Source of the DNA: a virus
Strand: one strand, 5' to 3'
Length of the DNA: 64,000 bases
Virus record (IMG/VR): IMGVR_UViG_3300026311_000001
Coordinates: 19,873 to 83,872 of that record
Of the stretch, positions 2,978 through 64,000 are shown one piece after another. Made by a program: the position numbers and the translations under genes. The notes beneath the pieces were generated by a model that saw only the letters and a program-made list of their open reading frames with translations, was not told the DNA's origin and did no database searches. Numbering within the stretch: the first letter of the stretch is position 1; each line of letters opens with the position of its first letter.

Positions 2978-4102
2978 TTATGAAATCTTACCAAGGTTAA
3001 ATTCCATTACTTCTTCTGGTTTGCAACAGGCACCGTAGAGTCCTGTAATAAATCGCAACAAAATATTCAAGGATGCATTCAAATCTGCGTTGTCCTCGTG
3101 GCTACATTTAAGACACCTGAATATCTCTAAGTTTCGATTCATCCTATCAGAATAACCACATTTCGGACAGGTTGTACTTGTATAAAACGGAGCTACAGTG
3201 CGAAACTTAACACGGTTAAGTTCACATGCCATTTCAAGCCGTTTCAACCAATACTTCCAATTCCAAATTCCAATAGAGCGTCTAATATTTTTAGTCAATA
3301 GACGTTTGACCTTTGTATTCTTTCCAAGATCCTTCAATTTTTCAACTACAATCATATCAGGATCAAGTTTAATTATCTCTTGGACTACTTCATCTATTCT
3401 TTGTTTTAAAGCTCTACGAGCCTGTTTCTGACCGTTTGAGCCATGCTTACATCTCTTTACTCTTTCAATACATGATTTAATGTCAGTACCAAGCTGTGTT
3501 CTATTTGAAAGAGATGCTAAAGCATTAATACCAGTATCAATACCCAAAACCTTGTTACCTTCTTTTTTAGGTAAAGTTTCAATTTCAAAACTAAACTGAA
3601 CATATCTATCTGTAATGATATATGAATTCAATCGTTTACCTTGCAGACTCAACTTATTAAAATGTTTGTGATATCTAATTGGTAAATCCATTATATGTTT
3701 ACCACCAACAGAAGCAACGTGCAACCAAGCATCAAATTCAACAGACTCCTTTGAATCTATCAAATCAGCGATAGTACAAGAAACATACATTCTTTTGCCT
3801 TTGTGAACAGGCATTACCATCTTATTTGGTTTATCTTTCCACCTTTCACGAGTAGCTTTGATCATATCAATCGCTTCACGGGCACAAACTTTCCGCAATC
3901 TTGCCGATAGCCACGTATCCTTTGGAAGATCAACTATATCTTTAAGCAATTCAGATTTGGATGGTAAGTTGCCATTCTCCCAGAAGTGCTTAATAAAGAC
4001 ATTACAAACCTTACCATATTCAGTAAGTATAGTTTGTAATTCTTCGATTTTAGATTTAGTAGCAAACTTTAAGCTACATTTAGTTGATCTTATCAGTTTC
4101 AT
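2978..4102 (-). CDS. tnpB: TnpB-like RuvC nuclease (IS607-associated type)
   Basis: RuvC-I VLGIDTGINALASLS, RuvC-II MIVVEKLKDL, zinc ribbon CPKCG..CLKC, RuvC-III DNADLNASLNI. Confidence 0.85.
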   Translation of the reverse strand: MKLIRSTKCSLKFATKSKIEELQTILTEYGKVCNVFIKHFWENGNLPSKSELLKDIVDLPKDTWLSARLRKVCAREAIDMIKATRERWKDKPNKMVMPVHKGKRMYVSCTIADLIDSKESVEFDAWLHVASVGGKHIMDLPIRYHKHFNKLSLQGKRLNSYIITDRYVQFSFEIETLPKKEGNKVLGIDTGINALASLSNRTQLGTDIKSCIERVKRCKHGSNGQKQARRALKQRIDEVVQEIIKLDPDMIVVEKLKDLGKNTKVKRLLTKNIRRSIGIWNWKYWLKRLEMACELNRVKFRTVAPFYTSTTCPKCGYSDRMNRNLEIFRCLKCSHEDNADLNASLNILLRFITGLYGACCKPEEVMEFNLGKIS

Positions 4103-4372
4103 ACATATACAACGTCTTTAAGACCACCTATATGTTGGTGTTGATTCACATCGGGATTGTTACAATCCAGTACTTTATCCACAACACTGAGAGTTTCCTC
4201 TCTGTTTAATTGTGAATTTGTAGAGCAAAGAACTTGTGAAGCATTCTCTGGTACGTTTTTTAACTCTAATTGTAACTTCTGCATAAATTTTAATTTTTAA
4301 GCTCCCTAATCAACTCTTACGTTGTGCATCACTACACAAGCCCCTTGATCTTCAGTCAAGGGGTAATTGACT
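4103..4372 (-). ncRNA. HEARO/IscB-omega-RNA-like structured RNA candidate, copy 1
   Basis: About 70% identical over ~270 nt to 25823-26100. Differences keep the hairpins intact (CCCCTTGA..TCAAGGGG here, CCCTTCCC..GGGAAGGG there). ORF 4099..4284 is probably not coding. Confidence 0.4.
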
Positions 4373-9231: not shown

Positions 9232-9516
9232 TTATCCAAAAATTAATTTAAAAGCGATTGAAAACCCTATTGTAATTACAGCGGCGGCACCTAATATCCA
9301 TGCACGATCCGTATTATAACGTTCCCTTAGTTTTGTGATTTCCTGCTTATTATCTGAAACCTCATGAATCAACCCTTTCCCTTGCGTATATTCTGAACCA
9401 AGTAATTCCCTCTTAATGTCAGTTACATCTTGTGGAACATCTTTCAGGGCATTAACAATTGTTCTGAAATTGTCAATTTCATCCTTCATAATGCAAGCGC
9501 CGTTTTTAGTAGTCAT
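9232..9516 (-). CDS. small C-terminally membrane-anchored protein
   Basis: 94-aa ORF, C-terminal TM ILGAAAVITIGFSIAFKLIF. Confidence 0.4.
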   Translation of the reverse strand: MTTKNGACIMKDEIDNFRTIVNALKDVPQDVTDIKRELLGSEYTQGKGLIHEVSDNKQEITKLRERYNTDRAWILGAAAVITIGFSIAFKLIFG

Positions 9517-9554
9517 AGCAAATCATTATTAAAGTGATTATTAATGTAGTCATA

Positions 9555-12080
9555 TTAATTTGCTTCAATTGCCTCAACCCAGTTATCTTTAATTATCTGA
9601 TCTCCAGTATCATTGGGGTGTACCCCATCCCCTGAATCAAAAGCCTCATCTAAATACTCATCTTCATCCAAATCAAGCCCCGTGGTGTTCGCGGTCATCA
9701 CATAATCAATTCCTGTGATTGTACTGCTTATTGCGGCATTTAAAGCCAACCATTTCGTATGATTTACCTCACCCTCTGCTGTGGGCGTCAATGTCGCTGC
9801 AATAATTATAGCTTCCGGCGCATCGGTATTTAGTTGATCAACCAAAATTTGATAATGGCCAGGACCGTCTGCTTCGGCACCAAGATCGTTAAGACCTATT
9901 TGTAAGCATATATATTCAAACGATTGTTGGGCCGAATCACTTAGTGCGTCCCACGCTGTTTTTTGTTGAAGAATTGTGTGGCCTGAAACCGCAATATTTG
10001 TTATCACATAAGGTTCGTCGTCGGCAATAAACAAATCATCAATAGGGGCCATAGTGCTATTCCCGAGTAACAATACTTCCGATTGATCAATTTCAACCGT
10101 GAACCTTACACCAATATATCCACCATCGTAATCAGCCGAATACCTTACAAAAAGATACCTCCCTGAGCTTGTATATGGACCCAGGCTTGATATATCACCA
10201 ATGGGACCCTCTTTCAGTTCAAGAAAATTATTATCAGTTTGGTTCCCATCAAGTATATGGATTCTATCACCGTTGCCTATTCCGCCAGCGGTAAAGTCTA
10301 CCGTTGCAGTATTCCCCTCACCGGCATCTATCAGCCATGTTTCATCAAATCCATCAAGGACAAAACCATAGTCACTGCTTTGATAAGTATTTTCTTCTGT
10401 GATCAAGTGATCGTATTTTAAATTTTTATTCTGAATTGGTTGCGGAGTTTTTAAAAATGGATTTGCGTGCAATGCTTGCGTTCCCCAGGTCGGATCATCT
10501 TCCAGTGTGAATAGCTTGAAATTATCAAGTATAACATAGCATCCATCGTCTGAAGGAGCATAATATTCTCCAGTACCGCCATGAAAGCTACATATAATCA
10601 CTCCGTCAATACCCCATGCCGGATCATCAACCTCCATATATTTTATCTCATCATCTTCAAGTACTTTATGCCCATCTGCCCATACCTCATGTATGCCATC
10701 TGTGTTTGCATCCCCACCTGTAAAAGTATTGATGGCCACCCTTTGAACTACCTCGTATTCATTGCCATAAACCATGAAAATAGTATCCAGCCAATCCGTA
10801 TTAGCCCATCCGCACCATATTTTATCGTGTGAATATTCATAAGTATACCATTCCCCAGCCTGTTCAAAGTTAACTTTAGCTATAAAGCCATCACTGCCCT
10901 CCGGGCATTCTCCCGGTGAAAATCCTTTTGGCTTTGCCGAAAACCCCGGCATTTTACCGCCACCGGAACTGTTATAGTTCCATGAATATTTTATATGAAA
11001 GCTGAGATAGTACTCTCGCGCATCAGGGACCACCACTGATACCTCAAAGCCTCCGATAGTAGCCCCCGGCGGGCTATAAACTTTCAATGCTTTGGAAATC
11101 TCACCGTCGATAGTGTCGAGAACTATTGAAGATACCGGTACGCCTAAATATACATTGACGTTGTTATAGTTAGTTTCGGGCCAATATTTAACAGAACTAT
11201 CATAACTAAACACGCCAAGGTTCATTCGGCTGAAATCTTCTTCCCATATTATATTATCTTCTGGTTCAGGAACGACTTTTTGTGGTTTACCTTTTTTCCT
11301 GAATAGATTTTTCTGGACATACGATGAACCGACCTTCCTGTATCTGTCTTTCAGCACATTGTTTCGATATGTGTTTTTTTCTATGCGTGTTTCTACCACG
11401 AACGGATAAGAAATACCATTATATAAACTACTGGCCTCATCTGTCGTCAGTACACGACTCCACATACCAACTTCGTCAATTAATCCATTGAAATCTCTTA
11501 ATGTCGATGAACTAGTATATGTCCCTATTATATTTGAGCTGCTCCCATTGGTAACATTTGCTGTTAGTGTAAACGTTCCCGCAGGTGATCCGTTTATATA
11601 ATATGTTCCAGTGTTTGCTGTTGTATTAAATGTGACTAATATATAATGCCAGTTATTAACAGATATAGTACTTGTACTTTGATCTGCCTCTGACACGTTC
11701 ACGATAACAAATTGTATCGCCCCATTATTTCTTACAACCAAAGATGCTGCACCTGTTTCACCCCCCACAACGGCAATAAATGAACTCTCATAACTAATGA
11801 CTTTCACCCATGCACCTATAGATAGGTTTCCAGTTAATTGTATCCGGGCATTATCCGGGAGTGTAATGAATTGTGAACTACCATTAAATGAGTACGCATT
11901 CCCTATATGTCCTGACACTCCCTGTGTAGCCCCTGTTACTGTTCCGTTGTTATATCCTGTTGCGTCAATAGCATTCCCCGAAGACTCATCCAACTTCCAA
12001 TACCCGTTTATATCAGTCAGTAAGCTAGACTGAGAATACGCATTAACACAAACCAATAAGCATATAATTATTTTTCGCAT
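9555..12080 (-). CDS. secreted LamG-lectin / SGNH-hydrolase fibre or spike protein
   Basis: Signal peptide MRKIIICLLVCVNAYSQ; LamG-like N-terminus (..LIDEVGMWSRVLT); C-terminal SGNH blocks LLLGNST, GLNDLG, DGVHPND. Confidence 0.6.
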   Translation of the reverse strand: MRKIIICLLVCVNAYSQSSLLTDINGYWKLDESSGNAIDATGYNNGTVTGATQGVSGHIGNAYSFNGSSQFITLPDNARIQLTGNLSIGAWVKVISYESSFIAVVGGETGAASLVVRNNGAIQFVIVNVSEADQSTSTISVNNWHYILVTFNTTANTGTYYINGSPAGTFTLTANVTNGSSSNIIGTYTSSSTLRDFNGLIDEVGMWSRVLTTDEASSLYNGISYPFVVETRIEKNTYRNNVLKDRYRKVGSSYVQKNLFRKKGKPQKVVPEPEDNIIWEEDFSRMNLGVFSYDSSVKYWPETNYNNVNVYLGVPVSSIVLDTIDGEISKALKVYSPPGATIGGFEVSVVVPDAREYYLSFHIKYSWNYNSSGGGKMPGFSAKPKGFSPGECPEGSDGFIAKVNFEQAGEWYTYEYSHDKIWCGWANTDWLDTIFMVYGNEYEVVQRVAINTFTGGDANTDGIHEVWADGHKVLEDDEIKYMEVDDPAWGIDGVIICSFHGGTGEYYAPSDDGCYVILDNFKLFTLEDDPTWGTQALHANPFLKTPQPIQNKNLKYDHLITEENTYQSSDYGFVLDGFDETWLIDAGEGNTATVDFTAGGIGNGDRIHILDGNQTDNNFLELKEGPIGDISSLGPYTSSGRYLFVRYSADYDGGYIGVRFTVEIDQSEVLLLGNSTMAPIDDLFIADDEPYVITNIAVSGHTILQQKTAWDALSDSAQQSFEYICLQIGLNDLGAEADGPGHYQILVDQLNTDAPEAIIIAATLTPTAEGEVNHTKWLALNAAISSTITGIDYVMTANTTGLDLDEDEYLDEAFDSGDGVHPNDTGDQIIKDNWVEAIEAN

Positions 12081-24119: not shown

Positions 24120-24140
24120 AGGTTTTATCCCCTCGCCAAA

Positions 24141-24176
24141 GAAGACCCTCTCCTTTAGGGGAGGGATGAATTTGGC
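24141..24176 (-). repeat. end-hairpin module, copy 3 (right end of IscB-type element)
   Basis: GCCAAATTCATCCCTCCCCTAAAGGAGAGGGTCTTC aligns with CCAAGTCAATCACCCTTCCCTAAAGGGGAAGGGCTTG (26095..26060) and with copy 1 at 4366..4331. Confidence 0.5.
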
Positions 24177-24182
24177 TATTTT

Positions 24183-24328
24183 TTAATTCCATATTAAACC
24201 ACCTTGATTATAATATTTTTCTATGTCTTTTGTCTTAAAATATTCTTTAAGTTTTGTTGAACCATAGCAAATATATTTACCATAGCTGAACATTCCTTTA
24301 CAGATATATTTTTTTCCTTTAACCCAAA
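24183..24328 (-). pseudogene. possible IscB C-terminal fragment
   Basis: ..LWVKGKKYICKG..GKYICYGSTKLKEYF..KYYNQGGLIWN*. The ending resembles IscB C-termini as I recall them (..NNGGLQIYV); weak. Confidence 0.25.
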
Positions 24329-24380
24329 GTGAACTACCCACCCACAGCAAAGCTGATGAGTGGGCTTTCGCTCCTAATGT
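24329..24380 (-). mobile_element. 52-nt miniature element (single hairpin + TAGTTCAC end)
   Basis: ACATTAGGAGCGAAAGCCCACTCATCAGCTTTGCTGTGGGTGGGTAGTTCAC, preceded by TTTAC; 50 nt (24337-24386, spanning its hairpin, left end and adjacent TAM flank) identical to 25703-25752. Confidence 0.5.
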
Positions 24381-24444
24381 GTAAAAAGAGCTGGCTCTGT
24401 TTAAGAAGACAACCAGTGACTCCATTAGGTGAAATTGTGGGGCA

Positions 24445-24590
24445 GTGAACTACCCACCCACGCCAAAGGCGATGGGATGGGCTTCATGGGTCAAAGCTCC
24501 TTCTACTGAAGGCAACGTACCATGATTTTTTAGTGTATGTTCCGTACACAAATGATTGTTTAAAGCAAAATTTTTGATATTTATGGAAGC
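24445..24590 (-). ncRNA. omega-RNA (reRNA) scaffold of element 1, extent approximate
   Basis: The 3' end of tnpB plus the right end form hairpins (CCTTCAGTAGAAGG; CCCAUCCCAUCGC/GCGUGGGUGGG with two bulged U). Guide would be TGCCCCACAATTTCACCTAA (24444..24425). Confidence 0.5.
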
Positions 24591-25628
24591 GTTTAAATCC
24601 CGGTCAAGAACAGAACCACACTCAGGACAAGACCATTCACGGTCTTTGAGTGTAAGTTCTTTGTTGATATACCCACAGCCTGAGCATGTTTTCGAGCTGG
24701 GTTCAAACCTTCCAATGCGAAGTATATTAACTCCGCTCCATTTTGCTTTATATTCAAGCATGGTTACAAACATTCCCCAACTGGCATCTGAAATAGAACC
24801 AGCTAAACGATGGTTTTTTACCATACCTTTAATGTTTAAGTCTTCCAAAGCAATAGATTGGTTCTCTCGTATTAACTCCGTGCTAACTTTATGCAGAAAA
24901 TCATTTCTTTGGTTTGCTACTTTTTCATGTAACAAAGCAACTTTATGTTTACGCCTTTTCCCTTTATTTTTTGAATACTGGCGTTGGTTGTATTTTAGTT
25001 TATCCTGTGCTTTACGTAGGTATTTAGGGTTATCATATTCTTCACCATTTGAAGAAACTATATATGATTTGATTCCTAAATCTAACCCTACCGTTGTTTC
25101 TTCTTTTATTGGTTGTGATTGTTTTTCAACCTCGCCTGTTTCACATAGAATAGAAACAAAATATTTACCTGTTGGTGTACGGCTTATTGTAGCCTGTTTA
25201 ATATCTCCTTTTATAGGTCGATGTAGGATAACCTTAATACCTTTTTTAAATTTAGGTATGAATATCCTATCACCATCTAAGCGTACTGATTGCGGTATAT
25301 TAAAAGACTGCTTACCCCTACCTTTTTTCTTAAACTTGGGGAAATCATTTTGCGCTTTAAAAAAGGCTGTATATGCTTTATCTAAATTTGTTATTGACTG
25401 TTGCAAGGATTGGCTATTAACCTCTTTCAACCATTCGTATTCATTTTTTAGATTAGTTAATCTTTTATGTAGCGCAAATAAAGAATGGTTTGTCTTATCT
25501 TTAGCGTATTCAGTCTGCTTAAAAGCCAAAGCGTTATTATACACAAACCTTGCACAACCAATATGCTTATTGATTAACTCAGCTTGCGGGGCTGTTGGTG
25601 ATATTTTGTATTTATACGCTCTTAACAT
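24450..25628 (-). CDS. tnpB: TnpB RuvC nuclease
   Basis: MLRAYKYKISPT.., VGLDLGIKSY, IALEDLNIKGM, CSGCGY..CPECG, DRDLNASINI. Confidence 0.9.
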   Translation of the reverse strand: MLRAYKYKISPTAPQAELINKHIGCARFVYNNALAFKQTEYAKDKTNHSLFALHKRLTNLKNEYEWLKEVNSQSLQQSITNLDKAYTAFFKAQNDFPKFKKKGRGKQSFNIPQSVRLDGDRIFIPKFKKGIKVILHRPIKGDIKQATISRTPTGKYFVSILCETGEVEKQSQPIKEETTVGLDLGIKSYIVSSNGEEYDNPKYLRKAQDKLKYNQRQYSKNKGKRRKHKVALLHEKVANQRNDFLHKVSTELIRENQSIALEDLNIKGMVKNHRLAGSISDASWGMFVTMLEYKAKWSGVNILRIGRFEPSSKTCSGCGYINKELTLKDREWSCPECGSVLDRDLNASINIKNFALNNHLCTEHTLKNHGTLPSVEGALTHEAHPIAFGVGG

Positions 25629-25747
25629 ATTGCAAATATACAAAATTTACAGAAACATACTAATTAATTTAAATAAATTATCTTGTATTGGGTCGCTTTT
25701 ATCCCACCCACAGCAAAGCTGATGAGTGGGCTTTCGCTCCTAATGTG

Positions 25748-25822
25748 TAAAACTTTTGCCTTTCTTGGACTACAAGGCATCAAAGGTTCACCTCTTTGAT
25801 TTAAAACATAAACAGATACACT
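25748..25822 (-). pseudogene. IscB/IsrB-type PLMP-domain N-terminal fragment, no start codon
   Basis: SVSVYVLNQRGEPLMPCSPRKAKVL, cut off by the left end of TnpB element 1. Confidence 0.55.
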
Positions 25823-26100
25823 CGTGTTCTGTTTCCGATTTGACTCGGATTGATCCCCATCGGGATTGTTTAAGAACCGTTTGTCATTTTTCAGACCAAT
25901 CTCAACACTAAGAGTTTCCTCTTTGTTTAATTGAGAATTCACAGAGCAAAGGACTTGGGAAGTATCCCCTGGTGTGTTCTTTAACTTTTTCTTAAACTTC
26001 TGCATAAAACCTCTATTAAAATTTTAAGCTCCCTAATCAACCAATTACCCTTGAAAGTCACCTCTCAAGCCCTTCCCCTTTAGGGAAGGGTGATTGACTT
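25823..26100 (-). ncRNA. HEARO/IscB-omega-RNA-like structured RNA candidate, copy 2
   Basis: Immediately 5' of the PLMP fragment, as expected for IscB omega-RNA; homologous to 4103-4372 with hairpin covariation. Confidence 0.45.
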
Positions 26101-27174
26101 GGCCATTACAAATTTTCCATTTTTTAGCATATAAAACGTATCTGCCTTTATCTTTTTACCATCAACCTTTGCGGTCTTTACCGATTTTAACTCCCATCCA
26201 TAACTATTTTGAACCCATTCTGAAAGCGTTATCCAACAATTTAACGGTGCTTTAGCTTTGTTTTTTATCCCGAATCCTACTGCCATAGAATGATTACTAT
26301 CAATTCCCGTGATAGATGATTCAGATTCATAACCTGTCGTGGTCGATACAGTACCTATACCTGATGCCTGTGAGACTGAACTGTAACCTGATGCCTGTGA
26401 GGCTGAACTGTAACCTGATGCCTGTGAGGCTGACCTGTCACCTGATGCCTGTGAGGCTGACCTGTAACCTGATGCCTGTGAGGCTGAACTGTCACCTGAT
26501 GCCTGTGAGGCTGACCTGTCACCTAATGCCTGTGAGGCTGACCTGTCACCTGATGCCTGTGAGGCTGACCTGCCACCTGATGCCTGTGAGGCTGAACTGT
26601 CACCTGATGCCTGTGAGGCTGACCTGTCACCTGATGCCTGTGAGGCTGACCTGTCACCTGATGCCTGTGAGGCTGACCTGTCACCTGATGCCTGTGAGGC
26701 TGAACTGTCACCTGATGCCTGTGAGACTGAACTGTAACCTGATGCCTGTGAGGCTGAACTGTAACCTGATGCCTGTGAGGCTGACCTGTCACCTGATGCC
26801 TGTGAGGCTGACCTGTCACCTGATGTACTGTTTTCTTTAGTCCATGTAACTTTATCAAATATAAATTTAATTGCACATTCGACTAATGTTTTTATACTTA
26901 TCTCCGTTTCCACGTGTATCTTAGATGAAGCTATTTTTGAATCATCATTTCCTTTGTCAATCTTACCATCTACTTTACAAATGGCAAACCTGTTATTAGC
27001 CGGAGGATAATAATTGAACACATCCAACGGATATTCGCATGAATGAAATCCTTTATTCGTACACTGTACTGGTGTTTCATCCATTTCATAAGTTTTACCA
27101 ATTTCATACTGAAATTCATTCTCATTTGGAGAACATTTTAAATCTTTGGCAAATCCTTTGTACGTAGTTTTCAT
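26080..27174 (-). CDS. repeat protein with 17 tandem nonapeptides SGDRSASQA
   Basis: Start MKTTYKGF (27174) more likely than 27210. Cys/His-containing N-terminal domain, 17 x 9-aa repeats, conserved C-terminal domain. Confidence 0.6.
   Translation of the reverse strand: MKTTYKGFAKDLKCSPNENEFQYEIGKTYEMDETPVQCTNKGFHSCEYPLDVFNYYPPANNRFAICKVDGKIDKGNDDSKIASSKIHVETEISIKTLVECAIKFIFDKVTWTKENSTSGDRSASQASGDRSASQASGYSSASQASGYSSVSQASGDSSASQASGDRSASQASGDRSASQASGDRSASQASGDSSASQASGGRSASQASGDRSASQALGDRSASQASGDSSASQASGYRSASQASGDRSASQASGYSSASQASGYSSVSQASGIGTVSTTTGYESESSITGIDSNHSMAVGFGIKNKAKAPLNCWITLSEWVQNSYGWELKSVKTAKVDGKKIKADTFYMLKNGKFVMAKSITLP
26360..26826. repeat. 27-bp tandem repeat, about 17 copies
   Basis: CCTGATGCCTGTGAGGCTGA(A/C)CTGT(A/C)A units; open in several frames on both strands. 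Confidence 0.9.
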
Positions 27175-27197
27175 AGTGTTATTGATTAAAGTTGTTT

Positions 27198-28489
27198 GTA
27201 AACTACCCACCCACGCAAAGCGATGGGATGGGCTTTAAACCTGACAACGAATGCAAAGAGCAATACATAGTCGATTTTTCAGCAGAATTTACGGTCTGCC
27301 CAAGCAAAGAGATAACTTTAGAAGCGTTATAATCAGCGTCTATGGTATCTACATTGCAGTTTGTGTTTGTGCATTTAAACACTTTGTTTGTTCGTTTGCC
27401 AATATGTTTACATTCACAGCAAGTCTGCGAACTGTAAGCAGGATTGACCACAACAAGTTTAATCCCATTGAGCAAAGCCTTATATTCAAGTTTTACTCTC
27501 AAATCTGCAAAGTTCCATTTATTAAGTTTTGTCCTAAACTTTTTGTTTCTCCGTTTAGAAGTAAACCTGATATTGGTAAGGTCTTCAATGGAAATACCTT
27601 TACCCTGTTCTTTTGCAGATGCTACAATAGATTTACTTATTGTGTGGTTAATCAAATTAGCCGTTGTTCTTTCCTTGCCACTAAGCCGTTTAGACAACTT
27701 CCTGCAATTCCTTTTAGTGGAACGCTTAGAAGTGTCTGCCTTTGCCTGAATAGAACTACGAACTTTTTGCCGATGTTCACGATAAGTATTAAGCCACTCG
27801 GCAGAATGGTTAATACCATCAGAAGTTGCTATAATCGTTGTCAAACCAAAATCACAACCGATAAATTCCTCAATGTCTTTAACATCTTCTTCGGGAACGT
27901 CAACGGTCTGAAACAGGTAAAACTTGCCTTTCTTATAAACCAAATCCGCTTCACCTTTAATGTAAGGCAGGTAGTTTCTATTATGGCAAACAAAGGGAAC
28001 TTTAATCCTGCCACCGATAGCCCAAAGGGAAACAATATCGTTGGATTTGTAAGTCATAATCCTGCTATCATAACCAATGCTTCCAAGCGGTCTAAATTGT
28101 CTTTTGGTTTTCTTATCCAATTTGTAGCTATCAGCAACTTTTGCAATACATCTTACAAGAATTTGACTACTAAGTTTAAAAGTAGCCTTGTATTTATGAT
28201 AAACCTCGTGATGCAATTTAAAATTATTGAAAATACGCTTCTCACAAGCCACATCAGAAATGGCATTGCAAACAGCATTAGCTTCCTTCATCGTGTCGAG
28301 AAGCAAGTTAGCCTGTTCATCGGCAGGCAAAAGCTTTATTTTCAATGTCAACTTCATGGCACAAAGATACGAAATAATTTCACATATAAGAAAAATAATT
28401 ACTAATTTTGTTAAACAATTTAATTATGGAGCGACAATTCCTTCCATCGGCAGCAAAGCTGACCAATGGGTTTCCTTGCCGAAAAGCTT
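27198..28489 (-). mobile_element. TnpB-only IS200/IS605-like element 3
   Basis: Left-end hairpin CCATTGGTCAGC-tttg-CTGCCGATGG preceded by TTCAT; right-end hairpin + TAGTTTAC. In-silico excision restores a clean stop in the flanking ORF. Confidence 0.65.
27203..28357 (-). CDS. tnpB: TnpB RuvC nuclease (divergent from elements 1 and 2)
   Basis: FIGCDFGLTTIIATS, GISIEDLTNI, CCECKH..CTNTNC, DADYNASKVI. Confidence 0.85.
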   Translation of the reverse strand: MKLTLKIKLLPADEQANLLLDTMKEANAVCNAISDVACEKRIFNNFKLHHEVYHKYKATFKLSSQILVRCIAKVADSYKLDKKTKRQFRPLGSIGYDSRIMTYKSNDIVSLWAIGGRIKVPFVCHNRNYLPYIKGEADLVYKKGKFYLFQTVDVPEEDVKDIEEFIGCDFGLTTIIATSDGINHSAEWLNTYREHRQKVRSSIQAKADTSKRSTKRNCRKLSKRLSGKERTTANLINHTISKSIVASAKEQGKGISIEDLTNIRFTSKRRNKKFRTKLNKWNFADLRVKLEYKALLNGIKLVVVNPAYSSQTCCECKHIGKRTNKVFKCTNTNCNVDTIDADYNASKVISLLGQTVNSAEKSTMYCSLHSLSGLKPIPSLCVGG

Positions 28490-28635
28490 ATGAATTTTTT
28501 AATGCTAATAGTTTCTAATATTTCACTCTCCTGTACGGCTATCTTAGATTCTATCCGTTCTATTATCCTCTGATAGGCGGTCTTGCCGTCTAAGCCTAAT
28601 TGATAGGCGTCGGGTTTAGAATGAATCTTCTTCAT
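28420..28635 (-). CDS. small ORF whose 3' part (28420-28489) is IS-derived
   Basis: Reads ..ETISIKKFI then enters the element left end; ancestral end reconstructed as ..KKFINNFNQ*. Confidence 0.4.
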   Translation of the reverse strand: MKKIHSKPDAYQLGLDGKTAYQRIIERIESKIAVQESEILETISIKKFISFSARKPIGQLCCRWKELSLHN

Positions 28636-30570: not shown

Positions 30571-31764
30571 TTATGCTCCATTTTGTGAACTACCCACCCA
30601 CGCTAAAGCGATGGGATGGGCTTCATGGGTCAAAGCTCCTTCTAACGAAGGCAACGTACCATGATTTTTAAGTGTATGTTCCGTACACAATTTATTTAAT
30701 GCGAAATTTTTAATATTAACGGAAGCGTTAAGATCACGATTAAAAACAGAACCACATTCAGGACAAACCCATTCACGGTCTTTGAGTGTAAGTTCTTTGT
30801 TAATGTATCCGCACGCTGAACATGTTTTAGAGCTTGGTTCAAATCTCCCAATCCTTAGAATGTTTACACCGTTCCATTTTGCTTTATATTCAAGCATAGC
30901 AACAAACATTCCCCATGATACGTCAGAAATTGAACCTGCTAAACAGTGGTTCTTTAACATTCCAGAAATATTTAAGTCTTCCAAAGCAATAGATTGGTTC
31001 TCTCTTATTAACTCTGTACTGACCTTGTGCAAAAAGTCTTTTCTTTGGTTGGCTACTTTCTCATGTAGAATAGCTAACCGATGTTTACGCTTATTTGATT
31101 TGTGTCTTGAAAATTGTCGTTGCTGGTATTTTAAGCGATCTATTGATTTACGTAAGTACTTTGGATTGTCGTATTCTTTGCCATTTGAGGCAACAAGAAA
31201 AGATTTAATTCCTAAATCCACCCCTACTGTTGTTTCTTCATTAACTGGTTTTGATTGTTTTTCTACCTCGCCAGTTTCGCAAAGAATAGATACAAAATAT
31301 TTACCTGTTGGCGTTCTACTTATCGTAGCTTGTTTTATTTCTCCCTTTATCTGCCTATGTAATACAATATCAACACCCTTTTTAAACTTAGGAATAATAA
31401 GTTTGTCGTTATCAATTTTTATACTTTGTGGAATATTGAAAGACTGTTTTCCTCTACCCTTTTTCTTAAATTTAGGGAAATCAGTACGCCCCTTAAAGAA
31501 GTTTTCAAAAGCAGTGTTCATATTAACAATAGATTGTTGCAAAGACTGGCTATTAACTTCTTTTAACCATTCATTTTCTTTTTTTAAATCAGGGAGTCGT
31601 TTAACAAGGCTATACCAAGAATGGTTGGTTTTGTCTTTAGCGTATTCTGATTGTTTAAAAGCCAAAGCATTGTTATACACAAAGCGAGCGCAACCAATAT
31701 GTTTATTGATTAACTCAGCTTGTGGTGCTGTAGGATTCAAACGATATTTAAACGCTTTTAACAT
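30571..31764 (-). CDS. tnpB: TnpB RuvC nuclease (close paralogue of 24450..25628)
   Basis: MLKAFKYRLNPT.., VGVDLGIKSF, IALEDLNISGM, CSACGY..CPECG, NRDLNASVNI. Confidence 0.9.
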   Translation of the reverse strand: MLKAFKYRLNPTAPQAELINKHIGCARFVYNNALAFKQSEYAKDKTNHSWYSLVKRLPDLKKENEWLKEVNSQSLQQSIVNMNTAFENFFKGRTDFPKFKKKGRGKQSFNIPQSIKIDNDKLIIPKFKKGVDIVLHRQIKGEIKQATISRTPTGKYFVSILCETGEVEKQSKPVNEETTVGVDLGIKSFLVASNGKEYDNPKYLRKSIDRLKYQQRQFSRHKSNKRKHRLAILHEKVANQRKDFLHKVSTELIRENQSIALEDLNISGMLKNHCLAGSISDVSWGMFVAMLEYKAKWNGVNILRIGRFEPSSKTCSACGYINKELTLKDREWVCPECGSVFNRDLNASVNIKNFALNKLCTEHTLKNHGTLPSLEGALTHEAHPIALAWVGSSQNGA

Positions 31765-31869
31765 ATTGCAAATATACAATTTTTATATTAATTGTTATCT
31801 TTGTATAAGATTATTAACCATGCCTTACATCCAACCGACTGAAGATCGGTTGGTTTTACGGCATAAATT
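30585..31869 (-). mobile_element. TnpB-only IS200/IS605-like element 2
   Basis: Left end AATTTATGCCGTAAAACCA + hairpin ACCGATC..GTCGGTTGG, preceded by TTTAT (31874..31870); right-end hairpin + TAGTTCAC (30592..30585). Confidence 0.65.
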
Positions 31870-44371: not shown

Positions 44372-44405
44372 GTTGCTAACATATGTATAAGCGCACTTTA
44401 CAGAC
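44372..44405 (+). repeat. attC-like AAC-side half-site (last of + array)
   Basis: GTTGCTAAC + ATATGTATAAGCGCAC... The only complementary partner in the window is the inverted copy at the right window edge. Confidence 0.4.
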
Positions 44406-44548
44406 GTAAATAATCATGTAATACAGTAACAATGGCACTTACAGAAAAACAAAAATATAATATTCAACAACTCTCCATTGAAGATACAATAGAAATACTT
44501 GACGAGTGTAAAGAAAGACTTGGATTAGTCTCGCAGGGAGATTATAAA
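44378..44548 (+). repeat. inverted repeat, left copy (171 bp)
   Basis: 100% identical to the reverse complement of 63743-63747 plus 63836 to window end. Confidence 0.9.
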
Positions 44549-61853: not shown

Positions 61854-62542
61854 AACCAATAGAAGTAAAAATACCCGTAGCCGCACTAATAATAACCGGC
61901 GTAATAATAATTGCCTCAGTAATTGTAACCACGGTAATAATCACCAACGGTAATGTCAAAAGGAAATTAAAGGGCGAAGTAATCCTTGTAAACGATCAGT
62001 ATCAGCAGTATAAGACTGAAGCCGAAAAAATCATAAGCCAGAAGGAAGATACTATACAGTACTATAAAAACATAGTGTTCAATAGAGATGAACGGATAAG
62101 GACACTGAACGGCAGTATCACTTCACTTAAAAATAAGCTATCCGAAATTCCTGCCGAAGCAAGTAAATATACCCCTAACGAACTTTACGAAGAACTGCAA
62201 AAGGTGTACGGAGAAAAAACAGACACGTTAGAATATCCATTTTCAGGAAACCAGGTAACTGAAATTTATGTAGAACATAAATATGCTAACGGGCTTGCGG
62301 AATTAACACAGCAATATGAATATATGATCGTAGAGTACATAAACAGGGTTGATGCAAGCGATAAGCAGATAGGGGAGCAGGATAAGTTATTGGAAATAAG
62401 AAAATCTATGCTGGAAGAAAGCGAAAAGAACGCGCAGATATTGTACGATAAATTCTTAAAAGAGCAAAAGAGGAAAAAGATATGGAGGGCGACCAGTGCA
62501 ATAGGCACGGTAGCGGGGATAGGAATTGGATTATTAATTTAG
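61850..62542 (+). CDS. membrane-anchored coiled-coil protein
   Basis: Start MKPIEVK (ATGA overlap with the upstream stop); TM AALIITGVIIIASVIVTTVII; C-terminal TM. Confidence 0.45.
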   Translation: MKPIEVKIPVAALIITGVIIIASVIVTTVIITNGNVKRKLKGEVILVNDQYQQYKTEAEKIISQKEDTIQYYKNIVFNRDERIRTLNGSITSLKNKLSEIPAEASKYTPNELYEELQKVYGEKTDTLEYPFSGNQVTEIYVEHKYANGLAELTQQYEYMIVEYINRVDASDKQIGEQDKLLEIRKSMLEESEKNAQILYDKFLKEQKRKKIWRATSAIGTVAGIGIGLLI

Positions 62543-62543
62543 T

Positions 62544-62597
62544 CGCTAAGTTAATTCGTGAGAACCAAATCGCCTCTGGCGTGGGTGGGTAGTTCAC
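62544..62597 (+). mobile_element. miniature/solo right end of TAGTTCAC-type TnpB element
   Basis: ..GAGAACCAAATCGCCTCTGGCGTGGGTGGGTAGTTCAC in the 60-nt gap between two genes. Confidence 0.5.
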
Positions 62598-63780: not shown

Positions 63781-63835
63781 CGTGGATGCCGTGAAACCCG
63801 AAGCCCATTTGTCTTTAGCAAATGGGTAGTTCACA
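63748..63835 (+). mobile_element. 88-nt miniature element (two hairpins, no ORF) of the TAGTTCAC family
   Basis: TTTAT|AAAACGGAGCGTAAAACCCAGTCATCGCTTTAGCGTGGATG..CCCATTTGTCTTTAGCAAATGGGTAGTTCAC|; interrupts the right copy of the 171-bp repeat. Confidence 0.6.
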
Positions 63836-64000
63836 ATCTCCCTGCGAGACTAATCCAAGTCTTTCTTTACACTCGTCAAGTATTTCTATTGTATCTTCAA
63901 TGGAGAGTTGTTGAATATTATATTTTTGTTTTTCTGTAAGTGCCATTGTTACTGTATTACATGATTATTTACGTCTGTAAAGTGCGCTTATACATATGTT
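63836..64000 (-). repeat. inverted repeat, right copy (runs off window)
   Basis: Reverse complement of 44378-44543; separated from its last 5 nt (TTTAT, 63743-47) by the 88-nt mini-element. Confidence 0.9.

Follow-up and report, generated by a model that had tools for sequence, protein, structure and literature searches.

How does a mobile element with a full-length guide RNA and two apparently intact ends come to hold only the two extremities of its nuclease gene, with a complete second element and a one-hairpin fragment lying between them? The question is raised by a locus in a 64,000-nt stretch of DNA (the window), which was taken from the complete, 83,872-nt record of a phage found in bioreactor samples. 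An earlier note made from the sequence alone had described a decayed IscB-type element with a HEARO-like RNA, split by nested TnpB insertions and composed of eight parts. All eight are present, and IscB and TnpB lineages do occur together in this one phage locus. The stretch is not an assembly artefact, because it is found whole in five assemblies at 99.3-100% identity and its junctions are covered without differences by Logan contigs from three runs; the samples may nonetheless share one reactor habitat (one reactor kind), and the Logan contigs from RNA runs are no measure of expression. Read along the minus strand, the locus has the following features:

26099..26118 (-), guide of the IscB omegaRNA, formed by the 3′ end of the DUF7666 gene (left flank), directly 5′ of the GTCAA end
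25848..26098 (-), full-length HEARO/omegaRNA scaffold (Rfam RF02033, 103.7 bits, model 1-211)
25747..26005 (-), N-terminal part of IscB, with an SD-ATG in the RNA, an extension of about 60 codons and PLMP, ending at a native TTTAC
25695..25746 (-), left end of the TnpB element, with guide AAAG and a hairpin, 3′ of TTTAC
24450..25628 (-), tnpB, 392 aa, IS200/IS605 (IS1341-like, no tnpA), by Pfam, with GLDLG, ALEDL and DRDLNA intact
24445..24490 (-), right end of the TnpB element, with guide GAAG, a hairpin and TTCAC, the same in L052, L054 and L055
24381..24444 (-), 59 foreign nt plus TTTAC, the first 16-20 nt being the TnpB guide
24329..24380 (-), 52-nt single-hairpin hybrid, 44 nt of left end passing via GTGGGTGGG to the right-end tail TAGTTCAC
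24183..24328 (-), C-terminal tail of IscB, resuming right after a native TTTAT, 89-91% identical in DNA to L016 and L137-139
24129..24176 (-), left end of the IscB element, a hairpin with guide AAGA on the plus strand, conserved in L012, L014, L016, L017 and L137
24124..24128 (-), TAM/target ATAAA (TTTAT on the plus strand), which follows the end in five relatives

The outer element, an IS200/IS605-type IscB element of 1,970 nt (26098..24129, minus strand), interrupts the phage DUF7666 gene at its stop codon. It begins at 26098 with GTCAA, has a hairpin at about 26090-26070 (fold z -2.75) and another at its far end (24176-24135), and stops at 24129, followed by ATAAA. The same ATAAA follows the far end in all five relatives examined, and their flanks diverge beyond it. 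Removal of the element in silico restores the end of DUF7666 as ...GKFVMAK-stop, and two homologs end FVLAK* and FVIAK*. Searches for an empty phage allele of 26098..24129 found none, leaving a reconstructed one only; two plus two candidate empty-site matches were unrelated chance matches. The DUF7666 gene also contains a 27-nt tandem repeat (ASQASGDRS-type; window 26251-26933, minus strand), whose copy number varies between assemblies to give proteins of 274, 373 and about 364-376 aa.

The HEARO model, with a cut-off of 83 bits, hits both regions that the note had proposed for searching, and the second (4140-4371, minus strand) scores 117.3 bits and likewise spans model positions 1-211; the two RNAs, noted earlier as a conserved block, are 75% alike over 200 nt. 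Because the full-length score of the first is close to those of intact relatives (104.9-119.9 bits), the scaffold appears little decayed. At its 5′ end the scaffold forms the transposon's right end (TGAC on the plus strand, guide CAAG). Both ends on the plus strand fit the IS608 guide/cleavage pairing, as AAGA/TTAT and CAAG/TGAC, in a register that we take to be that of the IS608 scheme, and on this ground the outer element may be excisable in trans. Excision of either the whole 1,970 nt or the inner 1,302 nt would be by a host TnpA only, since the single Y1 tnpA of the phage (G000:C1 about 9309-9695, minus strand; L036 1393-1779) is truncated: it covers Pfam positions 3-81 of 121 and retains the HUH motif, with a foreign C-terminus where the catalytic helix belongs. 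The omegaRNA is probably usable in trans by a compatible host IscB, as stand-alone omegaRNAs are (PMC10691335). Neither a compatible host IscB nor a host TnpA was identified, the phage has no intact IscB, and in the phage itself no target of the three guides has fewer than 6 mismatches of 16.

The second HEARO RNA belongs to a further feature of the window:

4103..4371 (-), stand-alone omegaRNA of 269 nt without a left-end hairpin, inserted at CAAA|ATGAA between IS607 tnpA and tnpB

An exact empty site for it, CAAA|ATGAA, is the intact IS607 tnpA-tnpB junction of L200 (901), which matches guide plus ATGAA. The neighbouring IS607 tnpA in the window has lost its N-terminal part. A HEARO-guided TnpB at 4371..2978 was considered and rejected: this TnpB forms an IS607 pair, a HEARO lies upstream in none of nine relative loci, and the identical protein occurs without one. 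A third IscB remnant of the phage (G000:C1 11007-11400, plus strand; L048) consists of the C-terminal 100 codons and the left-end hairpin, without RNA, and begins directly after a GroES-like gene.

The two protein fragments are what remains of iscB. The N-terminal part is 83% identical to residues 1-95 of P0127 and matches positions 1-22 of the IscB profile NF040563, and the C-terminal tail is up to 89% identical to full-length IscB proteins of 450-455 aa with RRXRR and HNH. Overall, the fragments are 80-89% identical to RRXRR+HNH proteins that themselves score 324-328 bits on NF040563 (cut-off 175). Against one full-length IscB, the window aligns to residues 1-95 and 407-455; residues about 87-407 are missing and neither the RuvC nor the HNH nuclease domain is intact. 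The IscB protein is dead, as the note had supposed, and the open reading frame is a remnant and not a working nuclease. 'Decayed' is thus apt for the reading frame but not for the element as a whole, in that the RNA and both ends look intact.

Intact relatives place the breakpoints to the nucleotide. The closest (L016 and L137-139) are 93-94% identical over the 5′ part and 89-91% over the 3′ part, and carry, precisely where the fragments break off and resume, a TTTAC on the left and a TTTAT on the right, the latter being TTTGT in more distant relatives. Relative to an ancestor inferred from these 89-94% identical sequences, 963 nt of iscB encoding RuvC, the bridge helix and HNH are missing, exactly from native TTTAC to native TTTAT, and both are target motifs of the TnpB family. 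A TnpB element does lie inside iscB, but the gene is not merely split by it, as had been suggested. TTAY precedes 1.4% of iscB positions and 0.6% of tnpB-element positions, a chance figure that is post hoc. Related contigs from a groundwater run (X6) break alignment at 25747 and 24328. The idea that the dead element had become a landing pad finds nothing beyond ordinary TTTAY targets in an expendable gene, and no preference is shown. A related locus, L015 (2001-2552), encodes an in-frame 183-aa IscB stub (P0124) with an intact HEARO and no TnpB ends; it is deleted from TTAT to TTAT, its right TTAT being the same as in the window, and could itself be an excision joint.

The N-terminal fragment had been thought to lack a start codon. 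In fact the PLMP frame opens inside the HEARO RNA with an ATG (26005) preceded by an SD-like AGAGG, and 74 stop-free codons separate this ATG from LMP; the window has no other start codon within 50 codons of PLMP. The frame is open in all nine DNA loci compared (the window, L012, L014, L015, L017, L018, L022, L135 and L137). In seven DNA loci, including some only 51-56% identical in protein, it runs without a stop across the RNA core, and the other two frames have 2-7 stops each. All RRXRR-containing homologs found with the tail fragment start MQK or MQQ, 69-74 codons before LMP; lengths differ by whole codons downstream of the start, but not between there and the RNA 5′ end. These patterns make it likely that translation in this IscB clade begins within the element's own omegaRNA, about 60 codons of which would then probably be translated as part of a dual-coding RNA.

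The inserted TnpB element is complete. It spans 1,302 nt (25746..24445, minus strand), encodes an intact 392-aa TnpB with the catalytic D-E-D and zinc ribbon, and begins, as the note had stated, directly after TTTAC (25751-25747); the protein scores 423.9 bits on NF038281, just under the cut-off of 425, and passes NF040570 with 345.8 (cut-off 100). Four copies in other genomes also follow TTTAC in unrelated flanks, so that the motif precedes five copies in all, and the AAAG/TTAC pairing is that of the IS608 end rule (PMC3201880). Within the window, a sister element of 79% identity has TTTAT in front of it, an AAAA guide and the same right end, and in L055 an AAAG guide is paired with TTTAT. 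The window carries several TnpB genes, and further members or remnants of the family lie at 27195-28500 (-), 30585-31864 (-), 62540-62597 (+) and 63790-63834 (+). Guides co-vary with motifs at the left end of the 30.6-31.9-kb copy (AAAA/TTTAT) and at the right end of the 27.2-28.4-kb copy (AAAG/TTTAC). Solo right ends without tnpB are found in L217 (near 1520-1561), where the hairpin is extended with the end motif mirrored on both arms, and in L220 (near 2600-2645). A 171-nt inverted duplication, 99% alike (window 44378-44548 and 63830-64000), has its start immediately behind a right end of TnpB type, where the record ends.

The spacer that follows the TnpB element (24444-24381) is 64 nt with its final TTTAC, 59 nt without it, and 58 nt – the length given in the note – if TTTTAC is left out. 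It is not a remnant of IscB, as it matches no IscB relative on either strand, and it has no match in the rest of the phage or in viral, metagenome or genome contigs, phages or plasmids; among 401 genomes there is only a 21-nt match at chance level. Neither the spacer nor the 4103 junction folds better than shuffled sequences. The reading that suits the 59 nt best is that of a right flank captured by the TnpB element, since the closing TTTAC is one base off the end motif TTCAC and another element of the window ends in TTTAC; TnpA can choose a cleavage site beyond the right end (10.1101/2023.03.14.532601). With this foreign sequence and not iscB as its right flank, the element appears to have travelled with its own guide.

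The 52-nt piece had been taken for a mini-element inserted after TTTAC. Its position is as described, but its structure hardly suits a second nested insertion. Over its first 44 nt it reproduces the left end of the full element without a difference, GTGGGTGGG is shared between left and right ends, and folding gives one hairpin only, with separate left and right hairpins absent; its flanks stem from iscB sites 963 nt apart. The same type of hybrid, 52-53 nt long, occurs in three genomes, the others being L053 (3216-3373) and phage L207 (near 2560-2615), and in L053 the order is TTTAC, the hybrid, and then a 3′ piece of tnpB that in intact copies follows a native TTAT. Each hybrid has its own 6-nt start, and in the window and in L053 this equals the start of the full element present there, which argues for repeated local collapse rather than one mobile mini-element. 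The phage holds one copy, and the 401 Bacteroidales-order genomes searched contain no one-hairpin copy. We regard the hybrid as most likely a recombination scar and not an independent insertion. An allele with the scar and without tnpB and spacer, 1,366 nt shorter, is present in L040 (SRR5215120, 637-700); it may be a precursor, a pop-out through a 50-nt repeat or a low-depth assembly shortcut.

The explanation that we favour, to which we give a probability of roughly 0.6 on the strength of these comparisons, is that two insertions and a recombination between hairpins removed most of iscB and left a TnpB element with an old flank. Homology shows that a Y1 transposase pasted an intact IscB element into the DUF7666 stop codon, 5′ of ATAAA, the empty allele being a reconstruction; comparison with intact iscB shows that TnpB-family ends became joined to two native motifs, a left end behind the TTTAC of the PLMP region and a right end behind the TTTAT near the C-terminus. 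Two copies would have inserted at these TTTAC and TTTAT sites, and the left-end hairpin of the first would have recombined with the near-identical right-end hairpin of the second – the two end hairpins of this family are nearly identical – with loss of the intervening DNA, including the 963 nt, and a 52-nt one-hairpin scar remaining. Before or after this collapse, the full TnpB copy would have arrived with 59 nt from the right flank that it had before, up to a TTTAC. It might have come as a circle, cut at this TTCAC-like site and then integrated at the TTTAC/left end of the scar, or as part of the first insertion. Two-copy recombination is supported by L053 as an independent parallel, L207 as a third hybrid, and the precedent of tnpB in Halanaerobium hydrogeniformans, in which two inserts gave a hybrid and what lay between them was lost (PMC7290912). 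An intermediate with two full copies, a donor of the 59 nt and an empty phage allele were not found.

A single copy at TTTAC would also serve if TnpA joined its right end to the downstream TTTAT, in an adjacent deletion with the same chemistry as integration (PMC3201880), and the one-hairpin piece arose by a separate collapse of a single copy. Such collapse seems to occur, as the flanks of the L207 hybrid may rejoin in one 69-codon frame. We nevertheless think this route unlikely: in L053 the TTAT is internal to the element and precedes its right end, a position from which one copy cannot give the product, and an AAAG guide would have to read a near-cognate TTAT, a pairing that L055 does have. 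Still less probable is that iscB was shortened beforehand by a microhomology deletion to an in-frame 134-aa stub, into whose TTTAC a composite of full element, 59 nt and mini-element then inserted. The joint is indeed in frame, and the L015 stub is an independent in-frame case that shares the right breakpoint and lacks TnpB ends; yet TTAC and TTAT offer only 3-4 nt of microhomology, L053 is left unexplained, the one-hairpin piece has no cognate GAAG guide to act as a right end, and the stub in L015 could be an excision joint.

The note's picture of two independent nested insertions, a full element and a mobile 52-nt mini-element at two TTTAC sites with 58 nt left over, is very improbable. Both left ends do follow TTTAC and pieces of 52-53 nt recur in three genomes, but no IscB contains a match to the 59 nt, even with flanks that are 89-94% identical, the right flank of the mini-element natively follows TTTAT and not the TTTAC of the spacer, TnpA requires a hairpin at each end (PMC3201880), and no one-hairpin copy was seen in the 401 Bacteroidales-order genomes. 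Returning to two-copy recombination, a broader reading is tentative and rather doubtful as a whole: paired insertions in this TnpB family might regularly collapse motif-to-motif into one-hairpin scars, turning IscB elements into guide-RNA-only loci, and the scar might be a re-entry site for TnpB circles carrying an old flank and hence a guide against foreign DNA.

The locus is not a new kind of system, as IscB elements, TnpB-only elements, gene-less remnants and stand-alone omegaRNAs are already described. It shares with IscB-omegaRNA (OMEGA/ISC) elements the HEARO at the GTCA end, the PLMP N-terminus, subterminal hairpins, and insertion by a short motif without duplication or a tnpA of its own (PMC4810608; 10.1101/2023.03.14.532601), and differs in that 963 nt of the reading frame, and hence the nuclease, are lost. 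IsrB has its SD at the 3′ end of the RNA (PMC9581776), whereas the frame in the window's clade starts inside it. The inner element resembles TnpB-only IS200/IS605 (IS1341-type) elements in its AAAG guide/TTAC target, hairpins at both ends, intact RuvC motifs and use of the right flank as guide (PMC3201880), but that flank is 59 foreign nt ending in TTTAC and not iscB. Like PATEs (10.1101/2023.03.14.532601), the 52-nt piece consists of gene-less ends; unlike them it has one shared hairpin and not two ends, and in place of identical copies at several clean sites there is one copy here, the look-alikes in L053 and L207 starting differently. The RNA at 4371..4103 is, like stand-alone omegaRNAs (PMC10691335), an RNA-only locus that may be usable in trans, and differs in having no left end. 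The Halanaerobium hydrogeniformans case (PMC7290912) shares the merging of two short related inserts into a hybrid with loss of the DNA between; there the inserts are 64 nt and of unknown source, whereas those of the window are IS ends, and its breakpoints are the family's own target motifs in the gene of another element. In the literature searched we met no description of an internal IscB start codon or of hybrids of two ends with one hairpin; for both, this is weak evidence that none exists.

The locus contributes a deletion that is well resolved from one motif to the other, together with a one-hairpin scar of a kind that recurs; it also provides a probable case of flank capture and strengthens the evidence that the start codon lies inside the omegaRNA. 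If translation begins there, it would compete with RNA folding on one transcript, and cloning from the PLMP motif in this clade would drop about 60 native residues. At present the phage would make no IscB protein; its omegaRNA with a compatible host IscB could cut empty phage alleles, and the intact TnpB would cut the joint that forms when its own element leaves. The 59 nt would be a likely natural case of flank capture, for which excision products in the laboratory had given the earlier hint. From the scar one can see fairly clearly how one mobile element destroyed another, and it offers a traceable natural route to stand-alone omegaRNAs and one-hairpin IS remnants.
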